Shown: in pieces, positions 46,636 through 61,432 of the stretch
Layout: every line of letters begins with the position of its first letter
How positions within the stretch are numbered: position 1 is the stretch's first letter
Virus record (IMG/VR): IMGVR_UViG_3300021560_000013
Location: 32,001-96,000 of that record
DNA from: a virus
Length of the DNA stretch: 64,000 bases
Strand: one strand, 5' to 3'
Notes under the pieces: model-generated
Told to the model about the DNA's origin: nothing
The model's database searches: none
The model's input: only the letters and a program-made list of their open reading frames with translations
Position numbers and translations under genes: made by a program

Positions 46636-46834
46636 GCACATCCTCCAGAGCCACATCGGCACCGACGGGAACGAGTACGGCTCGCACGCCTGGTGCGGGC
46701 TGCTCGTGCGCGGGCGGCGACCGAATATCAGCCCGGACGACTACCAGGACCGCGTCGCCAAGAACGTGACCGGCAACGTCTGCCGCAACTGCATCTCGGC
46801 CCTGGAGAAGGGCGTACCGAGGGTGGCGCACTGA
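46628..46834 (+). CDS. Small zinc-binding hypothetical protein
   Basis: H...WCG...CRNC. Confidence 0.5.
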   Translation: MREHILQSHIGTDGNEYGSHAWCGLLVRGRRPNISPDDYQDRVAKNVTGNVCRNCISALEKGVPRVAH

Positions 46835-47853
46835 TGGCGAAGATCGCTTACGAGGACAAGAGGTTCAGCGCCGGGTCGCTTGAGACGATCGCCCAGGCGA
46901 ACGAGATCCTGGAGGAGTACGAGAAGCTGGGCTACGACCTGACGCTGCGGCAGTTGTACTACCAGTTCGTCGCCAGGGACCTGATCCCGAACACTGAGCG
47001 CAGCTACAAGCGGCTCGGCTCGATCGTCAACGACGCGCGCATGGCCGGGTACATCGACTGGGACCTGCTGGTGGATCGCACCCGCAACGTCCGCTCAGTC
47101 CCGCACTGGGACGACCCGGCGGACATCATCGAGGCGACCGCCCGGAGCTTCAAGGTGGATCGCTGGGACAAGCAGAACGACTACGTGGAGGTGTGGATCG
47201 AGAAGGACGCGCTCGTCGGCGTGATCGCCGGAATCTCGACCCGGCTCGACGTGCCGTACTTCGCCTGCCGGGGCTACAACAGCCAGAGCGAGCAGTGGCG
47301 CGCCGCGCAGCGGCTGCTCCAGCGGGTGATCGACGGCAAGAACGTCACGATCATCCACCTGGGCGACCACGACCCGTCGGGGATTGACATGACCCGCGAC
47401 AACGACGACCGGCTGAAGCTGTTCGTCCGCCAGGACTACCTGCGCCACAAGGTCGGGGAGCTTGAGCACTGGGACACGCTCAGCGACGCGAACCAGGACG
47501 CGACACTGCGCCAGTGGCTGCGCGAGATGCCCACCGTCGAGGTGCGCCGGATCGCGCTGAACATGGACCAGATCAACCAGTACAACCCGCCGCCGAACCC
47601 GGCGAAGATGTCCGACAGCCGGGCGCACGGGTACGTCGAGGAGTACGGCTACGAGTCCTGGGAGCTTGACGCGCTCCCGCCGGACGTGCTGGAGAACCTG
47701 GTCCGCGACAACGTGGAGAGCCTGATCGACGTGCCCGCGTGGGACGCCGAGGAGCAGCGCGAGCACGACGGCCAGCGGTTGCTGCGGCTCGCGAGCGAAC
47801 GCTGGGACGAGATCGTGGAGAGCCTGAACGGAGACAACCCCGAGGAGGACTGA
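46834..47853 (+). CDS. Topoisomerase VI-A/Spo11-like TOPRIM protein
   Basis: TLRQLYY (winged helix with Tyr); VWIEKDAL; RGY; LGDHDPSG; WELDAL. Confidence 0.7.
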   Translation: MAKIAYEDKRFSAGSLETIAQANEILEEYEKLGYDLTLRQLYYQFVARDLIPNTERSYKRLGSIVNDARMAGYIDWDLLVDRTRNVRSVPHWDDPADIIEATARSFKVDRWDKQNDYVEVWIEKDALVGVIAGISTRLDVPYFACRGYNSQSEQWRAAQRLLQRVIDGKNVTIIHLGDHDPSGIDMTRDNDDRLKLFVRQDYLRHKVGELEHWDTLSDANQDATLRQWLREMPTVEVRRIALNMDQINQYNPPPNPAKMSDSRAHGYVEEYGYESWELDALPPDVLENLVRDNVESLIDVPAWDAEEQREHDGQRLLRLASERWDEIVESLNGDNPEED

Positions 47854-49114: not shown

Positions 49115-49278
49115 CCGCCGGTGAGTACCTGACGGATGGCAGCAAGGCGCTCCTGTACGTGCTCGAAGTGGATCCGCGCGGACGCGCGATGGTCGAGGAC
49201 GTGAGGACGCTGGAGGTGTACCGGATCAAGGTGACGGCGCTCGACGGCTGGCGGGTGGTGACTCCGGATGGCGCGTGA
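49084..49278 (+). CDS. Hypothetical protein
   Basis: AGGAG RBS; overlaps the portal start. Confidence 0.5.
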   Translation: MAVAARPRELTAGEYLTDGSKALLYVLEVDPRGRAMVEDVRTLEVYRIKVTALDGWRVVTPDGA

Positions 49279-51316
49279 CAACAGCGGCCTGATCGGGCGC
49301 GCCCGAGAGATCCTGGAGGAGCGCACCGGCAAGACGATCATCGACCAGGAGCACCTGAGCCTGCTGGAGGCCAGCGATGTCGAGCGCCGGGCGATGCAGA
49401 AGGAACTGGACCTGCTCGGCTGGTACGTGCTCGACTACATCGGCGGGCAGCCGCAGGAGGTGAAGGCGACCGAGCGCCGCAAGATGGCGGCGCAGGCGCG
49501 CATGGTCTGGGTGCAGGATCCGGTGGCCGGGGCGAACGTCGATCTCAGCTGCCAGTTCATCTTCGGACGTGGCGTCCCCAAACCGAAGGCGGCGGACGAC
49601 AAGGTCCAGGAAGTCATTGACGAGGCGTGGGACGACCCGGACAACAAGGCGACGCTGACCACGTTCCCGGCGCAGACGGCGCTCTGCACCGACCTGGTGC
49701 TCCAGTCGAACCTGTTCATCCTGTTCTTCGAGGGCGACGACGGCAAGGTCAAGCTCGGGATCCTCGACCACGACTCGGTGGAGGACGTGGTCCGCGACTC
49801 GAACAACCGGCTGCGCGTCCTGTACTACGTCGCGCGCCGCCGCGAGTACGGCTGGGACTACGTCATGGACCGGCCCGACATCAAGGCCCAGATGGCGCAG
49901 CAGGACCCGCGCAAGCCGCGCGTCATGTACTACCAGGCGCTCGCGGCGACCGACCCGGAGACCGGCGAGCTTGACTCCCAGGACGACGCCTGCCCGCCCG
50001 AGAAGCTGGGCGAGGGGCTCGTCTACCACATCGCGATCAACCGGGGCTCGGAGCAGATCTTCGGCATCCCGGCGATGCGCCGGATCGTGAAGTGGATGGC
50101 CGCGCTGAACGACTTCATGGCGGCGCGCGTGGACCTGACGCAGGCAGCTGCCGCGTTCATCATGCGCCGGACGGTGCAGGGCTCGCCGCAGCAGGTGGCG
50201 GCGATCGCGGCGAAGGCGATCTCGCGCCGGTCGGGCCTGGCGGCGACATCGGTGGACGACCCGACGATGGGCACCGTGCAGGCCGGGCCGAGGCCGGGCT
50301 CGATCCTGAACGAGAACCAGGGCGTCAAGACCGAGCCGTTCGCCGTGTCAACGCAGGCGGCGCAGGCGGCGCAGGACGCGCAGATGATCCGCTCGCAGAT
50401 CTCCTCCGCGACGTGGCCGCAGCACTACCTCGGGGACCAGAGCAACGCGAACCTGGCGACGGCCACCGCGCTGGAGCTTCCAGTAGTCAAGAAAGTAGAG
50501 GCGTACCAGGAACTGTTCGAGGGCCTGTTCCGCACGTTCATCGACCGGGCGATCCAGAACGCCGTGGACAACGGCACGCTGCCGACCGAACTGACCGATG
50601 AGGAGCGCGCCAAGCTCAAGGCGAAGAAGCCCGAGAACCAGACGCCGGGCTCGCCGCCGCCGGACGCGCCCGGCGCGCCGCTGCAGTCCGAGCCGCCCGC
50701 GTCGATGACAGACGTGCCGTCGCAGAACGGCTCGACGCAGCTGAGCGCAGGCTACGAGGGTCAGACCGAGGACGAGGAGGACACCGAGCGCGACCTGAGC
50801 TACGAGTTCGCGATGCCGTCGCCACTCAAGCGCCAGATGGCCGACCTGATCAACTCGATCGCGAACCTGGCGCGCACGTTCGACCCGAACAACACCAACC
50901 TCGAACTGAGCCGGACGCTGCTCGCTGTCGCGCTCGGCCAGGGCCTGGAGCTTGCCGATCCCGCAGCTGCCGTCGATCGGATCCTGCCCGAGGGCTACGT
51001 CGATCCGATGCTGGCCGCGCAGATGGGCGGCGGTGGCGGTGGATCGCCCGGCCAGGTCCCACCGCCGCCGCCGCTGATCCCGACCGGCGACACCGGCCCG
51101 AACATGTTCGGCCCCGGCGGACCGCCGCCCGGCGCAGGACCCGAGCCGAACCAGAACCCGTACGGCGCGCAGGGCTGGAGCAGCAACTACCAGGACAACC
51201 AGGGCCAGCCGATGTACCAGTCGCGCGACGAGGAGCTAGACGCGATCTGGGAGCAGGAGCTTGCCGAGGTGGTCGAGGGGTTCCTGACCGCAGCCGCCCA
51301 GAACGGGCGCGGCTAA
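49268..51316 (+). CDS. Portal protein
   Basis: Size; position before MuF; AR.VW..DPVA...FIFGRGV, FGIP, P.HYLGD..N.N.ATA motifs; Pro/Gly-rich tail. Confidence 0.8.
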   Translation: MARDNSGLIGRAREILEERTGKTIIDQEHLSLLEASDVERRAMQKELDLLGWYVLDYIGGQPQEVKATERRKMAAQARMVWVQDPVAGANVDLSCQFIFGRGVPKPKAADDKVQEVIDEAWDDPDNKATLTTFPAQTALCTDLVLQSNLFILFFEGDDGKVKLGILDHDSVEDVVRDSNNRLRVLYYVARRREYGWDYVMDRPDIKAQMAQQDPRKPRVMYYQALAATDPETGELDSQDDACPPEKLGEGLVYHIAINRGSEQIFGIPAMRRIVKWMAALNDFMAARVDLTQAAAAFIMRRTVQGSPQQVAAIAAKAISRRSGLAATSVDDPTMGTVQAGPRPGSILNENQGVKTEPFAVSTQAAQAAQDAQMIRSQISSATWPQHYLGDQSNANLATATALELPVVKKVEAYQELFEGLFRTFIDRAIQNAVDNGTLPTELTDEERAKLKAKKPENQTPGSPPPDAPGAPLQSEPPASMTDVPSQNGSTQLSAGYEGQTEDEEDTERDLSYEFAMPSPLKRQMADLINSIANLARTFDPNNTNLELSRTLLAVALGQGLELADPAAAVDRILPEGYVDPMLAAQMGGGGGGSPGQVPPPPPLIPTGDTGPNMFGPGGPPPGAGPEPNQNPYGAQGWSSNYQDNQGQPMYQSRDEELDAIWEQELAEVVEGFLTAAAQNGRG

Positions 51317-51465: not shown

Positions 51466-53253
51466 ATGCTACGACGCATCATGCTGGCGGTAGGGGCTAC
51501 TCTGCTCGCGATCGCCATCACAGTGCCGCTGGTCGCCTCCGGGCAGACCGGCACACCGTGGGTCAAGACTCACGGGAAGGGACGCGTAGTCAGCGTCAAG
51601 CGCAACCCGAAGCAGTGCGGGGAGCGGGGAGGCTGGCAGTTCAATCTCAGCGTGAAGCCGTGGAAGCTGATCGCGTGCAACGGAGCAAGGGGGCTGACCG
51701 GCGCTGCCGGTCCACAGGGTGCCAACGGTGCCGCTGGGGCTACTGGGGCCACCGGAGCTACTGGAAGCGCTGGAGCTACTGGTGCTCAGGGTCCGCGTGG
51801 GCTCACGGGGCTCCAGGGGATCCAGGGCCTCACGGGCGCGACCGGCCCGGCGGGTGCAAACGGCACTAACGGGACCAACGGCCCGAAGGGCGACACTGGC
51901 GCGAAGGGCGACCAGGGGCCGCAGGGTGTGCCGGGCGATCCCGGACAGCCTGGGTTCTCGGCCTACCAGCTGTGGCTGGCGGGGCCTGACGGCATCCTCC
52001 ACACCAGCGACGACAACGTCGGCTCGGTGGCGGACTTCATGCTGTCGCTAGTCGGGGACCGGGGACCGCAGGGTCCGGCTGGGCCGAATGGGCCGCAGGG
52101 TCCGCAAGGCAATCCCGGCGCTGCCGGTCAGAAGGGTGACACCGGACCGCAGGGTCCGAACGGACCGCAGGGTCCGACCGGGAACCCCGGCCACGATGGC
52201 GCTACTGGTCCTCAGGGGCCGAAGGGCGATCAGGGTCAGAAGGGGGACCAGGGCCTCACCGGCCAGAACGGTCCCCAGGGTCCGCAGGGTAACCCCGGTG
52301 CCGCTGGTCAGAAAGGTGACACTGGTGACCAGGGTCCGAAGGGTGACCAGGGCTCGAAGGGCGATCCTGGCGTGAAGGGCGACAAGGGCGATCCGGGCAC
52401 GAACGGTGCCAATGGTGCCGACGGCGCGAACGGCGTCGCGGGTGCCAACGGCAAGGACGGTCAGTCCGCGTTCGAGATCTGGGTCGCGCTCGGCGCTCCC
52501 GGCTACACCGGGACGGACGCCCCGAACCACGGCGACTTCATCGCCACGCTGAAGGGCGAGAAGGGTGACAAGGGTGCCACGGGTGACCAGGGCGCGAAGG
52601 GCGACCAGGGTGCCAACGGTGCCAAGGGCGACACCGGCGCTCAGGGTCCGGCGGGCTCGAACGGCGTCAACGGCCTCGACGGCAACAACGGGTCCAAGGG
52701 CCTGTCGGCCTGGGAGCTTTACCAGTCTCAGGGTGGCGTGCTCGACCTGGACAGCTGGCTGGCGTCGCTGCACGGCTCCAACGGCGCGAAGGGTGACACC
52801 GGCGCGCAGGGTCCGCAGGGCAACCCCGGCCACGACGGTGTGGACGGCAAGGACGGCGCTCCGGGTCAGACCGGCGCGACCGGCCAGCAGGGTGCTCCGG
52901 GTCAGCAGGGCAAGCAGGGTGACACCGGCGCGACCGGTGCCGACGGCGCTCAGGGACCGCAAGGCCCCAAGGGCGACCAGGGCGACCCCGGCGCGCAGGG
53001 TCCGAAGGGCGACAACGGTCCCCAGGGACCGCAGGGCAACCCTGGTGCCGCTGGTCAGAAGGGCGACACGGGTGCCACCGGCCCGCAGGGTCCGGCTGGT
53101 CCGCAAGGGCAGCCCGGCCACGACGCGGTGACCGCTTCGACGGTCGTCTGCATCGTCACCAACGGCGGGGGGAACAATCCCAAGCTCGCCATCGGTGCGA
53201 CCGCGTGTGCCGGACAGGCCACGATCACCCTGGCGGCTCCCGCCGGGTCGTAA
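51466..53253 (+). CDS. Secreted collagen-like protein (moron)
   Basis: Signal-peptide-like N-terminus; long Gly-X-Y tracts broken by three SA(Y/F/W)(Q/E)(L/I)(W/Y) motifs. Confidence 0.85.
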   Translation: MLRRIMLAVGATLLAIAITVPLVASGQTGTPWVKTHGKGRVVSVKRNPKQCGERGGWQFNLSVKPWKLIACNGARGLTGAAGPQGANGAAGATGATGATGSAGATGAQGPRGLTGLQGIQGLTGATGPAGANGTNGTNGPKGDTGAKGDQGPQGVPGDPGQPGFSAYQLWLAGPDGILHTSDDNVGSVADFMLSLVGDRGPQGPAGPNGPQGPQGNPGAAGQKGDTGPQGPNGPQGPTGNPGHDGATGPQGPKGDQGQKGDQGLTGQNGPQGPQGNPGAAGQKGDTGDQGPKGDQGSKGDPGVKGDKGDPGTNGANGADGANGVAGANGKDGQSAFEIWVALGAPGYTGTDAPNHGDFIATLKGEKGDKGATGDQGAKGDQGANGAKGDTGAQGPAGSNGVNGLDGNNGSKGLSAWELYQSQGGVLDLDSWLASLHGSNGAKGDTGAQGPQGNPGHDGVDGKDGAPGQTGATGQQGAPGQQGKQGDTGATGADGAQGPQGPKGDQGDPGAQGPKGDNGPQGPQGNPGAAGQKGDTGATGPQGPAGPQGQPGHDAVTASTVVCIVTNGGGNNPKLAIGATACAGQATITLAAPAGS

Positions 53254-53374: not shown

Positions 53375-56365
53375 GTGGCGGTCCAGCCCGCTGATCAGCA
53401 GCCCCAGCCGGTCCATCCGGATGTCCAGCGGCTGATCGACGCCGCGCAGATCGGCGCGACGATCCAGGCGGGCGTTGCCGTGTCGAAGGCGGCGGTGACA
53501 GCCGGGCCAATCGCGGTGACCGTGCTGCCACGCGCCGCAGCGGAGATCGTAGGTGCGCCGGTCGAACTGGCGGCGCACGCCGTCAAGTGGGCGGTCATCC
53601 TCCGCGTCCTGCGCCGCCTGTTCCGGCGGCATCACATGGAGACCGCCAGCTGGCTGGAGACGCAGCTGCGCAAGCAGTTCCCCGACCTGGATCCGGCGGT
53701 GATCCGGCAGGCCGTCGAGCAGGAGTTGAAGTTCGAGCGCGCGTTCCAGGCGAAGGCGCTCAAGCGCGCCGAGGCGGACTTCCACGCGGCGGGCCAGCTG
53801 CCGACACCCGAGGCGCAGGCGACGCGCGTCCAGCAGATCCTGAACCGCGAGAAGCACTACAGCCAGCTGCGCGAGCAGGCGCTGCTCGACCGGGCGATGC
53901 GCTTCTGCCACAACGCGACGGTCAAGGCGATCTCGCCGGACGGCGCGAAGTGGGTGCTCGGCCAGCGCAAGACGCACACGCCGGGCTGCGTCGCGATGGC
54001 GGGCAAGAACTGGCCGTGGCCGGTGCTCGACGTGATCAACCCGCCGGTCCACACCGGGTGCGGCTGCGAGCTTCGACCGCTCAGGCCGGGCGACACCGTC
54101 CCGCCAGTCGGCACGGCGATGAACCTGGCCCGCCAGGCGATGGCCCTGGAGGAGGCTGTAAGGGCCGCTGCGCCCGGCGAGATCGAAGCCTGGCTCCAGG
54201 GTCAGGTGGTGCGCCCCGTGGTCGCCAGGGCGCTCCAGCGGCTCCAGGAGGGCACGTACGAGGAGGCGCTCCACCCGCGTGGCCGTGGCGGCAAGTGGAT
54301 CGGCAAGCTGCTCAGCAGCCCCGGCTTCACGCAGCGCCGCCAGGCGCACGAGGTCCACGACGCGTTCCGGCGCGGTGAGGACGTGAGCGTGAGCAAGGTG
54401 GTCGATTCGCGCGCCGAGGCGACCAAGCAGTTCAAGACCGACTTCCTGGCAGCGATGCGCGAGGCCCGGCCCGGCTACGGCACCGGCAAGGTCCAGATCG
54501 CGGAAGGCTCGGTCGATGATCCCGAACTGATCAAGCGCGTCCAGCAGGCCGCTGAGTGGTTCCCGAAGGAATGGATAGACAGGGCCGGACCGCTCCGCGT
54601 GGTCGAGTCCAAGAGCCCCGGCGTCTACGCGCTGCGCGCCGAGGTGGCGAAGGACCACATCTCGACCATCGCGCTCCGCAAGGACTCGTGGGAGAAGAAC
54701 ATCGTCCACGAGATGATGCACTGGCTAGAGGAGAAGAACCCCGAGGTTCACAAGGCGGCGCAGGAGTTCCTCGACCGCCGCACCGAGGGCCAGGAGATCG
54801 AGCCGCTGATCAACGGCGCGCCGCACGAGGAGGTGAAGGAGGGCGGCTTCGTTGACCCGTACATGGGCAAGATCTACAACCACCCGTCCACCGAAGTGCT
54901 GACGATGGCGATGGAGGGGCTGGTCGCAGGGGCGATCCGCGTCGAGGACGACCCGGACCACTTCGCGATGCTGCTGAGCACGCTGACCGGCCAGAAGGTC
55001 GAGCCGTCCGAAGTCGGCACGTTCGGCCAGGGCTTCGACCTGAGCGGACTGAAGACGGCCAAGGCCAAGACGGCGGCGACAGCTGCCGCCCGCGCGATCG
55101 AGACGGCGACCGGCGTCGTTCACCCGGTGAAGTTCACTCACCTGGATCCGGACGATCCGGCGACGGCGCGCTCGCTCCCGAGCGGGCACATCGCGGTGGA
55201 CGAGAGCACCAGCCCGCACTTCCAGATCTCCGCGATCGTCCACGAGTACGCGCACAACATGGACCGGTCGGTGCTCGGCTCCGAGGACGACTGGTTCACC
55301 CAGCACGCGGACGAGTCCGGCCCGCTCTACAAGGCGCTGATGGCGTCGCCCACCGTCCAGAAGATCAAGAACGACGAGGTGGAGATCCTGAAGGGCGACC
55401 CGCGCACGACGGCGCAGCTGCTCCAGGCCCGCGAACTGTTCGCCCGAGCGTTCGAGCAGTACGTCGCGATGCGCGGCGGCAACGAGCGGCTGCGCGAGAA
55501 CCTGCGCAAGCTCCAGGGCGACCGGCTGCTCAGCTTCCAGCAGTGGCAGGACGACGAGTTCAAGCCGATCGCCGCCGAGATGGACAAGATCGTGCGCCAG
55601 CAGCACGCCGTCCAGGAGAGCAAGTGGACCGAGTGGCTCCACCCGCGTGGACGCGGCGGTCAGTGGGTCGATGCGATCCAGCACGTCAGCAAGGAGATCG
55701 AGCAGCCCGAGGCGCACGAGGGCTTCACCGGCGAGGACTTCGCCAGGGGGCTGGACGGCTTCACGCACGGCGACCTGACGGCGATGCGCATGAACCGCAC
55801 CGACACGCAGAACCTGTTCGGGGAGGTCTGGCTGAACGTGTTCCACAAGGGCCGGGGCGAGCCCGTCGGCATGGCGCGCGTCACGATCAAGCCGCCGACC
55901 AACCAGGGCGTCCGCTCGATCGAGTTCAACAACATCGTGCTCAAGGAGGCCGAGCAGAACCAGGGGTTCGGCAAGGCGTTCACCGATCACCTGTTCAAGG
56001 TGGCGCGCGAGGGCGGCGTGGACAAGATGGAGATCGAGGCGGTGTCCGTCGGCGGCTACGCGTGGGCCAGGCGAGGGTTCGTGTGGACCGGCGACAAGGG
56101 CGCGCAGCAGCGCGCGATCCTGGCCGACGCGAAGGAGAAGGGCCGCTACCAGGCGATCCAGGAGCACGTTCGGCAGAAGCTCCTGGAGGAGCTTGACCGC
56201 AAGATCGCTGCCGGTGAGTTCACCAGCGAGGCCGAGCTTGCCGCGTTCGGCCACGGCGAGTACTGGAAGGACGAGGACGGCAACCGCACCTGGCTGGGCA
56301 AGGAGTTGATGATGGGCTCGCACTGGGAGGGCGACCGCCCGATCACCGTCACCACTAGCGCATGA
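53375..56365 (+). CDS. MuF-like head morphogenesis protein fused to two zincin metallopeptidase domains and a GNAT domain
   Basis: HTPGC..MAG...PPVHTGCGC; HEMMH...EVLTM; HEYAH...ELFARAFEQY; QNQGFGK...VGGYAWARRGF. Confidence 0.8.
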   Translation: MAVQPADQQPQPVHPDVQRLIDAAQIGATIQAGVAVSKAAVTAGPIAVTVLPRAAAEIVGAPVELAAHAVKWAVILRVLRRLFRRHHMETASWLETQLRKQFPDLDPAVIRQAVEQELKFERAFQAKALKRAEADFHAAGQLPTPEAQATRVQQILNREKHYSQLREQALLDRAMRFCHNATVKAISPDGAKWVLGQRKTHTPGCVAMAGKNWPWPVLDVINPPVHTGCGCELRPLRPGDTVPPVGTAMNLARQAMALEEAVRAAAPGEIEAWLQGQVVRPVVARALQRLQEGTYEEALHPRGRGGKWIGKLLSSPGFTQRRQAHEVHDAFRRGEDVSVSKVVDSRAEATKQFKTDFLAAMREARPGYGTGKVQIAEGSVDDPELIKRVQQAAEWFPKEWIDRAGPLRVVESKSPGVYALRAEVAKDHISTIALRKDSWEKNIVHEMMHWLEEKNPEVHKAAQEFLDRRTEGQEIEPLINGAPHEEVKEGGFVDPYMGKIYNHPSTEVLTMAMEGLVAGAIRVEDDPDHFAMLLSTLTGQKVEPSEVGTFGQGFDLSGLKTAKAKTAATAAARAIETATGVVHPVKFTHLDPDDPATARSLPSGHIAVDESTSPHFQISAIVHEYAHNMDRSVLGSEDDWFTQHADESGPLYKALMASPTVQKIKNDEVEILKGDPRTTAQLLQARELFARAFEQYVAMRGGNERLRENLRKLQGDRLLSFQQWQDDEFKPIAAEMDKIVRQQHAVQESKWTEWLHPRGRGGQWVDAIQHVSKEIEQPEAHEGFTGEDFARGLDGFTHGDLTAMRMNRTDTQNLFGEVWLNVFHKGRGEPVGMARVTIKPPTNQGVRSIEFNNIVLKEAEQNQGFGKAFTDHLFKVAREGGVDKMEIEAVSVGGYAWARRGFVWTGDKGAQQRAILADAKEKGRYQAIQEHVRQKLLEELDRKIAAGEFTSEAELAAFGHGEYWKDEDGNRTWLGKELMMGSHWEGDRPITVTTSA

Positions 56366-56378
56366 TGTGCGCTACACT
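56356..56378 (+). promoter_or_regulatory. Palindrome + -10 TACACT
   Basis: TAGCGCATGATGTGCGCTA-CACT. Confidence 0.7.
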
Positions 56379-56389
56379 GTAGTCAGACT

Positions 56390-59300
56390 ATGGATTGGGC
56401 GACAGCAGCAGCAACCGTGAGCGACAGGGCAAACCTGTCCGAGCCACCCGACGCGCCCGGCGATGACTGGGACTTCTGGGACGAGGTGCAGAAGCTCGTT
56501 GACCCCGAGCTTCAGGAGGCATACGCAGCAGAGCTTCACCCGCGCGATCGCGCCGGGCGCTGGATGGAGAAGCTGGGGCTGAACCGCCTGCACGAGGTGG
56601 GCGGCGCACCGCGCGACGACCTGCTCGGCAAGATCCCGAAGGACATCGACTACATGGCCGTCGAGTCACCCGAGGAGATCCAGCGCAAGGTCGAGGCAGC
56701 TGGAGGCAAGGCCGAGCCGCTGATGGTCCGAGACCGGCTCGTGGGCGTTCGCGCGACGCACCCGGATCTGCCGCCCGGCGGCGTCGAGATCGTGCCGCCG
56801 CGCGTCGAGCAGTCCACCGGCGAGGGCCGACACGACTTCGCGATCGTGCCTCATCCCGGCCTGGGCACCGGCGCGAGCCCGGAGCACATGATCTCCGACG
56901 ACGCGCAGCGCCGGGACTTCACCGTCAACGCGATGTACCACGACACGGCGACCGGCGAGACGGTCGATCCGACCGGCCACGGCGTCGAGGACGCGCGCAC
57001 GCGCACGCTGCGCATGGTCCACGACCAGAGCTTCCAGGAGGACCCGCTGCGGATGCTGCGCGGCGCACGGTTCGCCTCACAGCACAACCTGACGCCGGAC
57101 CCGGCGACGTTCGCCGCGATGCAGCGCGACTCCGGAGGCATGACCGCGCTCACGCAGAAGGGTGTGAGCGGCACCGTCCAGGACGAGATGCGCAAGCTCC
57201 TGATGGGCGACAACCCCGGCAAGGGCCTGCGACTCATGCGCGACACCGGCATGCTGCAGCAGCTGCTGCCCGAGCTTGCGCCGATGGTCGGGTTCGACCA
57301 GCGCTCCGTCTACCACGAGCACACCGTGGATGAGCACACGTTCGAGGTGGTTGACGAGTTGGCGAAGGCGGGCGCGAGCTACGAGGCACGGCTCGCGGCG
57401 CTGTTCCACGACTCGGGCAAGCCAGCGACCGCGAACCTCAAGCCGGACGGCCACTTCCGCTTCCACTCGCACCCCGAGCACGGCGATCACCAGGACGTGG
57501 GAGCGCAGATCGCGCACGACACGCTGAGGCGGCTGAACTACCCGAAGGACACGCTCGACCACGTCACCGGCCTGGTGCGCGAGCACATGCTCACCGCCGT
57601 CACCAAGCCGACGCCGGTCAAGGCCAGGCGGCTCCGAGCCCGCTTCTCGGACAAGTTCCTGACCGACCTGCTCGACCACAAGGCCGCTGACATGGAGGGC
57701 CACGGCGACATGGTGGCGAAGGACCGCGAGGGGATCGGCAAGCTCCGCGCGCTGCTGGCCGAGAACGCCGACGCGCCGCGCTCGCTGAAGGATCTGAACG
57801 TCAACGGGCACGACCTGATGGCCGAGGGAATCGCGGAGGGTCCGGTGATCGGCCAGACGCTCAACCAGCTACTACGCGAGGTCGTGGACAACCCGGACCT
57901 GAACCGGCGCGAGTGGCTGCTGAACCGGGCTGCGAAGCTGGCGGCGCTGAGCACCCAGGAGTGGGCCGCACTGGAGGAAGCGAACATCTACGAGGAGGCG
58001 CTCCACCCGCGCGATCGACTGGGCAAGTGGATGTCCAAGGAGTTCGGTGAGCAGCTGGCCCGGCCCGGCAACAAGCGCAGCGGGAAGAAGCCGACGCCGT
58101 ACAGGCCCGCGCAATGGACCGACACCGGCCAGGACTTCCAGACGATGGCGCACGAGGCCGCGCAGCTGGTTCACCCCGAGGGGACGCCCGAGGAGCACGC
58201 CGAGATCGCCAGGGCCGTGACTGCCGACAGGCCACCGCCGAGGGGCGTGAGCAAGGAGGCGAAGAAGGCGGCGAAGAAGCTGCGCGACAAGAGCGCGCCC
58301 GAGGGCCGCTGGGGCCAGTACATCTACCGGCTGCACGGCATCGCCGCCGCCGCTCACGCCGACCAGACCGACCGGAGCGGCAAGCCGTACATCCAGCACG
58401 TCGAGGCGGTGGCTGACTCCGTCTCGGATGAGGCCAAGCCGGTGGCGCTGTTCCACGACGCGCTGGAGGACGCCGAGCTAACGCCCGAGGTGCTGAAGGC
58501 GGCGCTGACCGAGCCGCACGTAATGACCCCCGAGCAGGCGCAGACGATCGTTGACGCGATCGGGCTGCTGACCCACGACGACGCGGAGTCCTACGGCGAG
58601 TACATCGACCGGCTCGCGAACGCGCCGGGCAAGGCGGGCGAGCTTGCACGCGAGGTGAAGCGCGCCGACCTGCAGCACAACCTGGGCCGCATGACCCCGG
58701 AGATCGTCCGCGACGCGCCGCAGCTGCAGGAGCGCTACGGGAAGGCGCTGCGGACGCTCGCGCCCGAGCGCACGCCGATCTCGCAGCGCGGCGCGCCGCT
58801 GAACGTGAACAACCTGGACGAGGCGACGGTGCTGGCCCGGCTGCGCAAGCTGTACGAGGCGAGTGAGCAGGCGGGCACGGCTGAGATCGAGAAGCACTGG
58901 TACCAGCAGGCGCACGACGAGATCGCCGCGCTGGCCGAAGAGCACGACGTTGACCCGCATGTGCTCGCCGCGATGGTGGCCGCGACATCGCCGCAGCTGA
59001 CCTGGCGTCACGAGTTCAAGGACGGGCGTGTCAAGTACCCGAACCTCGAACTGGCGGTCAACGCGATCAGGCTCGCGCGCCGCTACCCGGACGAGCCCGC
59101 GCCGAAGCTGGTGGACCGGCTGGTCGAGGCGTCCACGAAGCGCACGCCCGAGGAGCGCAAGGCCGGACCGAGCGAGCTTGGTGGGCTGGGCGAGTCGATC
59201 CTCAAGGCGATCCGGATCTACCGGGGCGAGGATCCCGAGCGGGTCCTCGGCGCGCCCAAGACGCGCTCGTTCGCGAACAACCTGACCTACCCGGACCAGG

Positions 59301-59560
59301 CGACGACGGTCACGATGGACGAGCACATGGCCCGCGCGGTGATCGGCCAGGTCAGCAAGGAGGGCTACGGCGGCGGCGCAGGCGTGTTCAACGAGACCGC
59401 CGAGGGGTCGGGCTACACCTGGAGCGCCAACATGGTCAAGCGGCTGGCCGAGGAGAAGGGCGTCCTCCCGCATCAGGCGCAGGCGATCGTCTGGGTGGCG
59501 CAGAAGGCGCTCGCGGACGCCGCCGAGGCCGAGGCCAAAGCCGCCAAGGCGAAGGGCTAA
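56390..59560 (+). CDS. Polyvalent protein: CCA-adding/poly(A)-polymerase-family nucleotidyltransferase with HD domain, SpoT/Mesh1-like HD hydrolase, and a C-terminal helical (glycosylase-like) domain
   Basis: VGGAPRD.LLG..PKDID, RRDFTVNAM, EDPLRMLRGARF, HT...FHDSGK; AHADQTDRSGKPYIQH...FHDALED...VKRADLQHN; WY..A...ATSPQ...PKT.SF..N...VTMDEHM...QAQA..W. Confidence 0.85.
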   Translation: MDWATAAATVSDRANLSEPPDAPGDDWDFWDEVQKLVDPELQEAYAAELHPRDRAGRWMEKLGLNRLHEVGGAPRDDLLGKIPKDIDYMAVESPEEIQRKVEAAGGKAEPLMVRDRLVGVRATHPDLPPGGVEIVPPRVEQSTGEGRHDFAIVPHPGLGTGASPEHMISDDAQRRDFTVNAMYHDTATGETVDPTGHGVEDARTRTLRMVHDQSFQEDPLRMLRGARFASQHNLTPDPATFAAMQRDSGGMTALTQKGVSGTVQDEMRKLLMGDNPGKGLRLMRDTGMLQQLLPELAPMVGFDQRSVYHEHTVDEHTFEVVDELAKAGASYEARLAALFHDSGKPATANLKPDGHFRFHSHPEHGDHQDVGAQIAHDTLRRLNYPKDTLDHVTGLVREHMLTAVTKPTPVKARRLRARFSDKFLTDLLDHKAADMEGHGDMVAKDREGIGKLRALLAENADAPRSLKDLNVNGHDLMAEGIAEGPVIGQTLNQLLREVVDNPDLNRREWLLNRAAKLAALSTQEWAALEEANIYEEALHPRDRLGKWMSKEFGEQLARPGNKRSGKKPTPYRPAQWTDTGQDFQTMAHEAAQLVHPEGTPEEHAEIARAVTADRPPPRGVSKEAKKAAKKLRDKSAPEGRWGQYIYRLHGIAAAAHADQTDRSGKPYIQHVEAVADSVSDEAKPVALFHDALEDAELTPEVLKAALTEPHVMTPEQAQTIVDAIGLLTHDDAESYGEYIDRLANAPGKAGELAREVKRADLQHNLGRMTPEIVRDAPQLQERYGKALRTLAPERTPISQRGAPLNVNNLDEATVLARLRKLYEASEQAGTAEIEKHWYQQAHDEIAALAEEHDVDPHVLAAMVAATSPQLTWRHEFKDGRVKYPNLELAVNAIRLARRYPDEPAPKLVDRLVEASTKRTPEERKAGPSELGGLGESILKAIRIYRGEDPERVLGAPKTRSFANNLTYPDQATTVTMDEHMARAVIGQVSKEGYGGGAGVFNETAEGSGYTWSANMVKRLAEEKGVLPHQAQAIVWVAQKALADAAEAEAKAAKAKG

Positions 59561-59580
59561 CTCACGATGTGCGCTATAAT
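59558..59580 (+). promoter_or_regulatory. Palindrome + consensus -10 TATAAT (leaderless)
   Basis: TAACTCACGATGTGCGCTA-TAAT, 7 nt before ATG 59588. Confidence 0.8.
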
Positions 59581-59587
59581 GAAGGGT

Positions 59588-61432
59588 ATGGATCCAGTTG
59601 CCCCCATCACCCCGGACGACCCGGTGAGCATCGACACCTTCGAGGCCGTGATGGCCGCGATGGACGACCTGATCGGTGGCGACGGCACGCTCGCGGAGGC
59701 GTTCAACCCGAACCAGCCGCGCTTCCCGAAGGGCCACGCGAAGGCGGGCCAGTGGCGACCCAAGCTCGTGACCGGCGCAGGCGGGCTCGCGCCCGGCCAC
59801 CTCGATCGCGACATCCGGAAGATCAACGACCTGATCGAGCAGGGGACCGGCGGCGGCACCGTCGTGAACGTGTCACCCGGCAGCCTGGACGTGATCGGCC
59901 AGCAGGTCGAGAAGGTGGCGCTGAAGTACTCGGCGCGCAAGGTCTACGAGAAGCGTCTGGAGGACATCCGCGCCGAGCGCACGGCGATCCAGGACGCCAA
60001 GTGGGACGCGTACGAGAAGGCGTGGCGCGCCGCGCCGCCGTTCGAGGAGCGCGACCCGCTGGAGCCCGAGGACTTCATCGACCCGAAGGACGCCGCCCGG
60101 CTGAAGGAGATCGCGGAGGAGGAGATCAAGCTCGTCAAGCAGCGTGACTTCGCTGACCGCGACGCGATGCTCGGCGTGCTCCAGAAGATCCGCCCGATGG
60201 GCGGCAAGCTGAACGTCGCGCCGTGGACCGAGAACAAGATCGAGGCGCGCACCGACAACGAGATCGAGAAGGCGTACCGCGAGCAGGAGCTAGCGCGAGG
60301 AGCGGGCGCGAAGGTGCTGATGCAGCGCGACCTGGAGGCCAACCTCAAGCAGGTGCTGAAGCTGATCCCCAAGGCGTGGCTGGACGACACCAACAGCAAG
60401 GGCACCGTCAACTTCCTGTTCTCCGACACCCGCGCGTACGCCGACACGCGCGAGGAGACGCCGCCCGGCCAGTGGGACGAGTGGAAGGGTGCGCGCAAGG
60501 CGCTCGACACGCTGGCGGGCGAGGGCTACAAGCTGCTGGGCCGCGACAAGAAGGTGAGCACGTTCCTGATGCTCGAAGCGCCGAACGGCGACGTGGTGGC
60601 GCTGCGCTCCGACGGCTCGATCCCGAAGGGCGTCGGTGAGTTCTCCGACACCGCGCTGGTGCTCAGCAAGGAGGGCACATGGACGCTGCCCGGCTTCACC
60701 GAGCACGCGACGGCCAAGGACGCGAAGAAGTTCGTGACGCCGATGAAGACGCTCCCGCCCGAGCCGACGATCCCGTCCCCGTCGAGCGCGATGGGCCAGA
60801 ACTGGGATCCGTACGAGCGCATGCGCACCGCCGTCGCCAAGCGCGAGCAGGAGGGCTGGAAGTTCGTCGGCATGCGCGGCAAGTGGGCGACGCTGCGCAA
60901 GGGCGACGAGGAGATCTCGCTGAACTGGGCGGGCGACCCGCTGACCAAGCAGGTCGGCCAGGGCGGCAAGGACCGGGGTCTCGACCCGCTGAACCCGTAC
61001 GTGGTGATCCCAGCGCCGCCGGTGCCGAGCCAGACGAACACGACGATCAAGATCGACCCGAGGCCCGGCGACAAGGACACGCTGCTGCACGAGCTATGCC
61101 ACCGCATGGAGGTGGTCTACGGCGAGCAGAACAACGCGGGCTACCACCCGCTGTCGATGGCGATGCACAGCTTCTTCAACAGCCGCACCAAGGGCGAGGA
61201 GACGCAGAAGCTCCGGGACCTGTACCCCGGCTACGCCTACGAGGGCCACGAGATCTCCAAGCCGGACAAGTTCATCGACGGCTACTGCGGCAAGATCTAC
61301 AAGGGCGAGAGCACGGAGCTACTGACGATGGGCCTGCAGTACCTGTTCTTCCCCCGCTTCGGCTCAAACCGTGACGTGAACAAGGATCCGGCGTACCGGC
61401 GGCTGATCCTCGGAGTGATGGCGACGCTATGA
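59588..61432 (+). CDS. Protein with a C-terminal zincin metallopeptidase, paralogous to the first MuF peptidase module
   Basis: HELCHRME...RT.GE...F.D.Y.GKIY...TELLTMG matches HEMMHWLE...RT.GQ...F.D.Y.GKIY...TEVLTMA. Confidence 0.75.
   Translation: MDPVAPITPDDPVSIDTFEAVMAAMDDLIGGDGTLAEAFNPNQPRFPKGHAKAGQWRPKLVTGAGGLAPGHLDRDIRKINDLIEQGTGGGTVVNVSPGSLDVIGQQVEKVALKYSARKVYEKRLEDIRAERTAIQDAKWDAYEKAWRAAPPFEERDPLEPEDFIDPKDAARLKEIAEEEIKLVKQRDFADRDAMLGVLQKIRPMGGKLNVAPWTENKIEARTDNEIEKAYREQELARGAGAKVLMQRDLEANLKQVLKLIPKAWLDDTNSKGTVNFLFSDTRAYADTREETPPGQWDEWKGARKALDTLAGEGYKLLGRDKKVSTFLMLEAPNGDVVALRSDGSIPKGVGEFSDTALVLSKEGTWTLPGFTEHATAKDAKKFVTPMKTLPPEPTIPSPSSAMGQNWDPYERMRTAVAKREQEGWKFVGMRGKWATLRKGDEEISLNWAGDPLTKQVGQGGKDRGLDPLNPYVVIPAPPVPSQTNTTIKIDPRPGDKDTLLHELCHRMEVVYGEQNNAGYHPLSMAMHSFFNSRTKGEETQKLRDLYPGYAYEGHEISKPDKFIDGYCGKIYKGESTELLTMGLQYLFFPRFGSNRDVNKDPAYRRLILGVMATL

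Follow-up and report, generated by a model that had tools for sequence, protein, structure and literature searches.

Phage polyvalent proteins are large proteins that string together unrelated effectors, such as zincin-like peptidases, GNAT acetyltransferases, nucleotidyltransferases, Zeta toxins, ADP-ribosyltransferases (ARTs) and NUDIX enzymes; their genes lie near head genes, and they are predicted to accompany the DNA and may be processed (Iyer, Burroughs, Anand, de Souza, Aravind 2017, PMC5512222). The studied gp21-type proteases, from T4, phiKZ, 201phi2-1 and SPN3US, all cleave x-X-E motifs behind the Glu; they degrade the scaffold at many positions and strip targeting propeptides from ejection proteins (PMC5694885, PMC7411985). 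Polyvalent proteins and the internal proteins of T4 are both known, and how diverse effectors reach capsids outside T4 is an open question. Here we examined three adjacent genes, P0001, P0002 and P0003, of the IMG/VR virus record IMGVR_UViG_3300021560_000013, in which a peptide of about 20 residues (the tag) recurs at the junctions between protein modules, commonly behind a short Glu-containing site (the xE site). The window that we analyzed has 64,000 nucleotides and corresponds to bases 32001-96000 of the 110,271-bp record, an uncultured 110-kb soil-type phage. The most likely reading of P0001-P0003 is that they are phage polyvalent (multi-effector) head-cargo proteins made of shuffled modules.

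Two properties of the three proteins agree with the described polyvalent proteins. At least two unrelated effector domains are present per polypeptide in P0001 (HExxH and GNAT) and in P0002 (CCA/HD, HD_4-like and DUF7178). The genes are phage-encoded and come after the portal gene, close to the packaging and head genes. The zincin domain that is a frequent hub in polyvalent proteins may also be represented: there are HExxH motifs and matches to PHROG "minor head protein" families, but the Pfam LPD1 match is weak (E 0.016) and PDB sequences gave no match.

Five junctions in three adjacent genes

An earlier note on this stretch, made from the sequence alone, had marked five in-frame junctions, and all five were confirmed (Table 1). 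The core HPRxRxGxW occurs four times in the 2,673 residues of P0001-P0003, where 3.5e-5 copies are expected, and only 3 of 20,000 composition shuffles gave even one copy. Each of the four has [LV]xE in front of it, with G, S or A as the next residue. The fifth junction, LAE-AFNPNQPRFPKGHAKAGQW, is a module-specific variant of the same element. It is a real junction because it is conserved in a related phage (L008) and recurs between modules inside a polyprotein of 2,227 aa that is not related (P0156), where it reads VEE-AFDPDQPRYPKGHPKAGQW.

Table 1. Features of the cargo locus and of the associated protease gene. Positions refer to the window unless stated otherwise; a slash marks the predicted cut.
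Feature	Position	Strand	Description and basis
Portal protein	49268..51316	+	phrog_10963 portal, E 1.7e-29; marks the head-gene neighborhood of the cargo genes
Collagen-repeat protein	51466-53253		595 aa; between the portal gene and P0001
P0001	53375..56365	+	996 aa; MuF-like domain, two HExxH peptidase-like modules, GNAT (PF00583, phrog_33618, phrog_4529)
MuF-like head-morphogenesis domain	53375..54241	+	P0001 aa 1-289; AlphaFold2 fold, BFVD matches, PPxHxxCxC motif
Junction 1	54242..54310	+	LQE-GTYEEALHPRGRGGKW (LQE/GTYEEALHPRGRGGKWIGKL); in P0001, in frame
Junction 2	55610..55678	+	VQE-SKWTEWLHPRGRGGQW (VQE/SKWTEWLHPRGRGGQWVDAI); in P0001, in frame; heads the GNAT module
P0002	56390..59560	+	1056 aa; leader, CCA-adding enzyme with HD, HD_4-like hydrolase, DUF7178 (Pfam PolyA_pol, PolyA_pol_RNAbd, HD, tRNA_NucTran2_2, DUF7178; phrog_2244, phrog_990)
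P0002 acidic leader	56390..56518	+	aa 1-43, net charge about -10; in L010 a homologue of this leader stands before another module
Junction 3	56510..56575	+	LQE-AYAAELHPRDRAGRW (LQE/AYAAELHPRDRAGRWMEKL); in P0002, in frame; heads the CCA module
Junction 4	57971..58042	+	LEE-ANIYEEALHPRDRLGKW (LEE/ANIYEEALHPRDRLGKWMSKE); in P0002, in frame; heads the HD_4/DUF7178 part
P0003	59567..61432	+	621 aa; leader, variant tag, region of unknown fold, HExxH peptidase-like domain at the C-terminus (aa 492-599 matched by phrog_33618 and phrog_19443)
Junction 5 (variant)	59690..59767	+	LAE-AFNPNQPRFPKGHAKAGQW (LAE/AFNPNQPRFPKGHAKAGQWRPKL); in frame; heads P0003 after the leader
P0004 protease-scaffold fusion	genome 21768-23261 (L005:1768-3261), outside the window		Gene before the cement and capsid genes

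The tags are located between Pfam and PHROG domain matches. Some domain boundaries have no tag, among them that between the two HExxH modules of P0001 and that between HD and DUF7178 in P0002. The earlier note had placed the fifth tag before a peptidase; a peptidase-like end does exist in P0003, but approximately 430 residues of unknown fold come first. At the HD_4-like/DUF7178 boundary of P0002 we noted a tagless LDE/A site (window 58814-58825, aa 809-812). The HD_4-like and DUF7178 parts are split by an insertion in another protein (P0127), and may be separate modules with a tagless cut site between them.

Outside the window, the 4.5-12 kb part of the genome has four further copies of the tag; these precede a HicA toxin domain and peptidoglycan-binding repeats or lie elsewhere. 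The HicA copy belongs to a 127-aa protein (L001:4445-4828) that consists of a tag (LHPRTRTGEF) and the HicA mRNA-interferase toxin domain, a domain found in 3 of 63 surveyed tag proteins. At 10-12 kb of the genome (L001:10050-10210 and L001:11668-12140), a second recurrent peptide, F-x-RARARE-x-x-LR-x-x-L-x-E, precedes several tags. It is also present in P0134, P0136, P0137 and P0142 and may be a conserved pre-tag helix.

The tag and the modules behind it

We built a tag profile of 32 columns from 15 tags and searched it against 1.84 billion cluster representatives (E<=1e-3). It matches 324 representative proteins, each standing for a protein family, most of them 600-7,300 residues long with 2-15 matched stretches; the best 149 proteins contain 396 strict tag cores. 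The resulting logo of about 20 residues reads [WFY]-[DE]-E-x-L-H-P-R-[GD]-R-x-G-[RK]-[WF]-[IV]-x-K-L-G. No Pfam or NCBIfam family covers the tag, even at E<=10, and a literature search for the motif strings returned no paper describing it. The tag peptide is predicted to be unstructured alone; the predicted local distance difference test score (pLDDT) of the AlphaFold2 (AF2) model of P0001 is below 50 across residues 290-332, which span junction 1; such values are as expected for a short peptide that would fold on a partner. The PRGRG string of the tag was considered as an AT-hook and set aside, Asp replacing that Gly in 41% of tags.

Tags are strongly enriched at the domain boundaries of homologues, one of the outcomes on which the earlier note had made its reading depend. 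Homology blocks start within -25..+15 residues of a tag in 31% of cases, compared with 9% for random positions. When different tag proteins are aligned locally, the alignments start at -20..0 from the tag His and end at 0..+20, in both cases far above the random control. Spacing between tags is domain-sized (median 288 residues). The first tag lies at most 60 aa from the N-terminus in 64 of 150 proteins, and the last tag at most 60 aa from the C-terminus in only four of the 150. Tags thus lead modules and do not trail them.

The same is evident for individual modules of P0001-P0003. About a dozen other proteins also have the CCA module, at varied positions, and the homology mostly starts at P0002 aa 33-55 (LQE is at 41 and the tag His at 50), beside a tag of the other protein. 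For the GNAT module, homology begins at P0001 aa 745/746 in many proteins (VQE starts at 746), and the high-scoring segment pairs of P0002 with P0184 and P0127 begin at aa 528, which is junction 4. Modules of P0003 also recur at varied positions elsewhere, mostly starting at the tag. In the other direction, the homology of the MuF-like domain to relatives stops at P0001 aa 308-316, where the tag ends, and relatives whose MuF-like domains are 50-62% identical have wholly different sequence after the tag. Modules that are fused in one phage are split in another into separate genes with their own leaders.

Because module boundaries coincide with tags, the tag could matter mainly as DNA, providing conserved homology for recombination that swaps effector cassettes, as the earlier note had also suggested. 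The note had pointed to a 23-nt identity that links two tags, and this identity is exact. However, the 23-mer encodes an identical octapeptide, YEEALHPR, in the strongly biased codons of a record that is high in G+C, with a G+C content at third codon positions (GC3) over 90%. Over 66 nt, tag DNAs have a mean identity of only 58%; exact in-register runs have a median of 8 nt and reach 20 nt or more in 0.8% of pairs. It is the residues H, P, R, G and W that are conserved, and synonymous codons vary. We consider a role as a recombination substrate very improbable and rejected it on the basis of tag DNA identity.

Distribution of the tag

A Pfam census of 63 tag proteins recovered PG_binding_1, Zeta_toxin, GNAT, PolyA_pol/CCA, HicA, HD, DUF7178, NUDIX, PHP and ADP-ribosyltransferase domains, which is the polyvalent-protein repertoire. 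The tag is nearly confined to phage DNA. Among 185,579 species genomes we found three confirmed tag loci, and among 401 sampled Actinomycetota genomes a match occurs only in the genome on which the sample was centered. A tblastn search with a short tag as the query matched only Gordonia phages GodonK and Phendrix; tblastn with a second tag and tblastn against plasmids gave no matches, which is weak evidence given the insensitivity of short queries. In GodonK the tag occupies residues 22-41 of a 1,479-aa protein (gp67) encoded directly after the portal gene, and the head genes of this phage have no similarity to those of the phage studied here.

There are hints that non-phage mobile elements may also use the tag. 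On an Actinomyces contig from a metagenome-assembled genome (L043) and on the Nostocoides jenkinsii chromosome (L042), proteins of 290-410 aa start directly with a tag-like M..(D/E)E.QHPRG.DGKWV.KP. The Actinomyces contig has three tag-like paralogues within 10 kb, near a weak FtsK/SpoIIIE match, and Pfam searches of the two loci showed no clear phage or conjugation context beyond that match.

Two further variants were noted. In more distant relatives a second flavor of the tag, [WF]-x-x-PKG-[TH]-x-x-x-G-x-[FW]-x-P-[KR], replaces HPR. It resembles the variant of P0003 and is located at the junction between MuF and the first module in L027, L038 and L039, and at aa 298 of P0219. Two very long proteins (P0159 and P0171, of 7,334 and 5,313 residues) encoded on one 409,570-bp NCBI contig have about 15 tags each, of the form DWDE-x-K-HPRGEHGKF, without upstream xE.

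A candidate cut site and a gp21-fold protease

The site [LIVM]xE[AGS] is located 6-13 residues upstream of 46% of tags, with a peak at 36x background where the Glu is at -8. Its use per protein is bimodal: among 62 multi-tag proteins, it is absent from every tag in 23 and present at every tag in 11. In proteins with the MuF-like domain of P0001 it precedes 86% of tags, compared with 36% in others. This bimodal and MuF-biased use argues that the site is a feature of particular lineages, and the tag a general one. The claim that an xE site introduces the tags therefore holds well for the MuF-like lineage and for only about half of tags family-wide.

The earlier note had proposed looking for a prohead protease outside the window. 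We identified a candidate there in P0004, whose gene precedes those of the cement and capsid proteins and which has no match in Pfam or PHROG. Its structure model (pLDDT 81) has the T4 gp21 protease as the top Foldseek match, and in VIA-align residues 10-207 align with T4 gp21 (5jbl_A) at Z 9.6 and a root-mean-square deviation of 3.8 over 144/165 residues, the sole match with Z>=8. His103, Ser172 and Glu194/Asp203 are invariant in 60 homologues and fit the His-Ser-acid triad of gp21-type enzymes (PMC5694885). The remainder of the protein is a long helical, scaffold-like region. An N-terminal L-R-E/A site is kept in 60 of the 60 homologues and a C-terminal LLQE/AG site in 48.

The same motif is abundant in other head proteins. 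Across the proteome, the enrichment of [LIVM]xE[AGS] over composition shuffles is greatest in P0004 itself (14 vs 3.0 expected, z 6.3), followed by P0001 (9 vs 4.0 expected) and the portal protein (6 vs 2.4 expected). The capsid protein has LLE/A and LEE/A in the 30 residues before the start of its Pfam domain, that is, in an N-terminal extension, and a capsid homologue at 58% identity keeps LEE in the same place. Because the site is enriched in P0004, P0001 and the portal and also occurs in the capsid extension, we infer that in this lineage [LV]xE with A, G or S as the next residue, at 6-11 residues upstream from the tag, is the predicted cut site of the gp21-fold prohead protease.

We somewhat favor, with a little more confidence than doubt, a mechanism in which cargo borne by a MuF-like domain or a leader is loaded into proheads and cut after Glu by the phage's own protease into tag-headed enzymes. 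P0001 would enter the prohead via its MuF-like domain, near the portal, and P0002 and P0003 via the leader, the tag or both. The P0004 protease would digest the scaffold, trim the capsid protein and cut the cargo after Glu. The products, with the tag at their new N-termini, would be two zincin-like modules, the GNAT, the CCA-adding enzyme, and the HD hydrolase with DUF7178. The retained tag would then most likely act as a docking or retention handle, so that each module would stay in the head and leave it with the DNA for delivery to the host. For the tag, which is the only feature common to unrelated cargo and can be at the extreme N-terminus without a leader, we favor this role of intracapsid docking or retention through a putative partner; protease recruitment, DNA binding or a role in ejection are possible.

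Several observations weigh against cleavage at the site. About half of all tags have no upstream xE, some tags lie so near the start codon (3-20 residues) that a cut there would split off nothing, and LxE[AGS] is also found inside folded modules of P0001 and P0002. The xE element could be just part of a helical tag. Moreover, the virion RNA polymerase of phage N4, a polyvalent protein, is packaged uncut (PMC5512222). In a rival reading, the proteins might be packaged and delivered uncut, or not packaged, and the junction might be a structural module header, for example a helix and a basic loop (the tag core has a net charge of about +1.9) that binds DNA or guides passage through the tail, with an LxE that is not scissile. 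We regard this as unlikely. Under it one would not expect the spacing between xE and HPR to vary from 6 to 11 residues, the use of xE to be bimodal by lineage, or the site to be most enriched in the gp21-fold protease-scaffold, enriched in the portal protein and present in the capsid extension. Leaders that end exactly at the site and head different modules also speak against it.

The embedded HExxH peptidases offer an alternative processing route. The tag might be a recognition element for these zincin-like metallopeptidases, with autoprocessing before packaging or after injection that is independent of the prohead protease, and autoprocessing by such peptidases is predicted by Iyer et al. 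(PMC5512222). HExxH is indeed seven-fold enriched in tag proteins (81 vs 11.6 expected, in 54 of 152 proteins), and there are two HExxH modules in P0001 and one in P0003. On the other hand, HExxH is present in the tag-bearing open reading frame at only 15 of 34 related loci. It is absent from complete tagged MuF polyproteins (L007 and L024) and from the tagged gp67 of GodonK. Autoprocessing also leaves unexplained the lineage-specific Glu site, its enrichment in the scaffold and portal proteins and its presence in the capsid extension. We therefore consider it quite unlikely, and retain cleavage by the prohead protease as the preferred explanation of the site.

More tentatively, the tag could serve as a portable address label by which any protein is loaded into, or retained in, capsids, even where the head genes of the phages are unrelated, each lineage setting the cut site of its own protease just before it. 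We consider this generalization somewhat less likely than not. If true, phage heads would in effect have a general, reprogrammable code for loading cargo.

Cargo proteins and gene neighborhood

In the N-terminal domain of P0001, the AF2 model has good confidence for residues 63-265, and nearly all of its top 50 matches in BFVD are MuF-like, head-morphogenesis or minor capsid proteins. The motif PPxHxxCxC, which we take to be a hallmark of MuF, is conserved in 18 homologues, and the gene is near the portal gene, with one collagen-like gene in between. Two points tell against the assignment: the Foldseek E-values for the fold are weak (2e-3 to 0.1), and Pfam Phage_Mu_F (PF04233) gives no match to P0001 at E<=0.1. 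A Phage_Mu_F match was likewise not recorded for 13 P0001 homologues. We thus call the predicted domain MuF-like by fold and do not claim family membership. Sequence searches of P0001 and P0003 against the Protein Data Bank (PDB) gave no useful match, and a search of viral contigs for close relatives of P0003 found no locus.

Acidic leaders had been proposed for the two proteins without a MuF-like domain. They are present on both P0002 and P0003 (net charge about -8 in the latter), and acidic leaders are one of at least two classes. Leaders of the first class, those of P0002 and P0003, are acidic and end at xE. Those of the second are basic and Pro/Gln-rich, have no xE and stand before peptidoglycan-binding modules. 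In relatives the leader family of P0002 heads different modules, which shows that leaders are portable.

The record has a phage gene set that includes the large terminase subunit (TerL), a portal protein, an HK97-type capsid protein and a tail sheath. The portal gene is followed by the collagen-repeat gene and then by P0001, P0002 and P0003, directly after which there is a lysis cassette. The relatives in IMG/VR are 107-126 kb in size, and some have terminal repeats. Among cultured phages there is no DNA similarity to the 8-kb region of the three genes and no tblastn match to the portal protein. The collagen-repeat protein separates the portal and MuF-like genes, and there is a matching gap in relatives (e.g., L008); the location is odd for a "tail fiber"-type protein, and it may be a head fiber. 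Between the terminase and portal regions, a 386-aa protein (window 46693-47853) matches a PHROG "DNA topoisomerase" family (E 1.7e-113).

Significance and comparison with known systems

A header peptide at the module boundaries of hundreds of protein families gives a concrete sequence to consider for packaging, retention or ejection. It offers a way to predict which phage enzymes travel with the DNA; in the phage described here these would include a tRNA CCA-adding enzyme, an HD hydrolase and an acetyltransferase, which are plausible counter-defense tools. Should the tag be sufficient for loading, chosen proteins could be brought into actinophage particles with it.

For known polyvalent proteins, term searches of Iyer et al. 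found neither "linker" nor a shared module-heading peptide nor a prohead-protease site before modules, and embedded peptidases are proposed there as the processing agents (PMC5512222). Term searches of that paper (Iyer 2017), Zhang 2012 (PMC3482391) and Jamet 2017 (PMC5576092) likewise showed no such tag.

The MuF polymorphic toxins of temperate phages (Jamet et al. 2017, PMC5576092; Zhang et al. 2012, PMC3482391) share with P0001 an N-terminal MuF-type head domain followed by variable C-terminal modules. These toxins occur in prophages and combine one toxin with an immunity gene, whereas P0001 has several enzyme modules and a repeated junction tag (an immunity gene was not searched for).

The closest parallels in maturation are the internal proteins and Alt of T4 and the ejection proteins of phiKZ and SPN3US, with which our system shares a gp21-fold protease, an x-X-E motif, a scaffold with multiple sites and, probably, N-terminal propeptides (PMC7411985, PMC5694885); the corresponding cutting and ejection would be expected by analogy. 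The portable leaders of P0002 and P0003 recall the removed N-terminal targeting peptide of T4, yet here the conserved element follows the site, and many tags lack a leader. The T4 targeting peptide precedes the cut and is discarded, whereas in P0001-P0003 the conserved peptide follows the predicted cut and would stay on the mature protein. Unlike the T4 peptide, the tag is also found at internal positions of polyproteins and in phages whose head genes are unrelated, as in GodonK.

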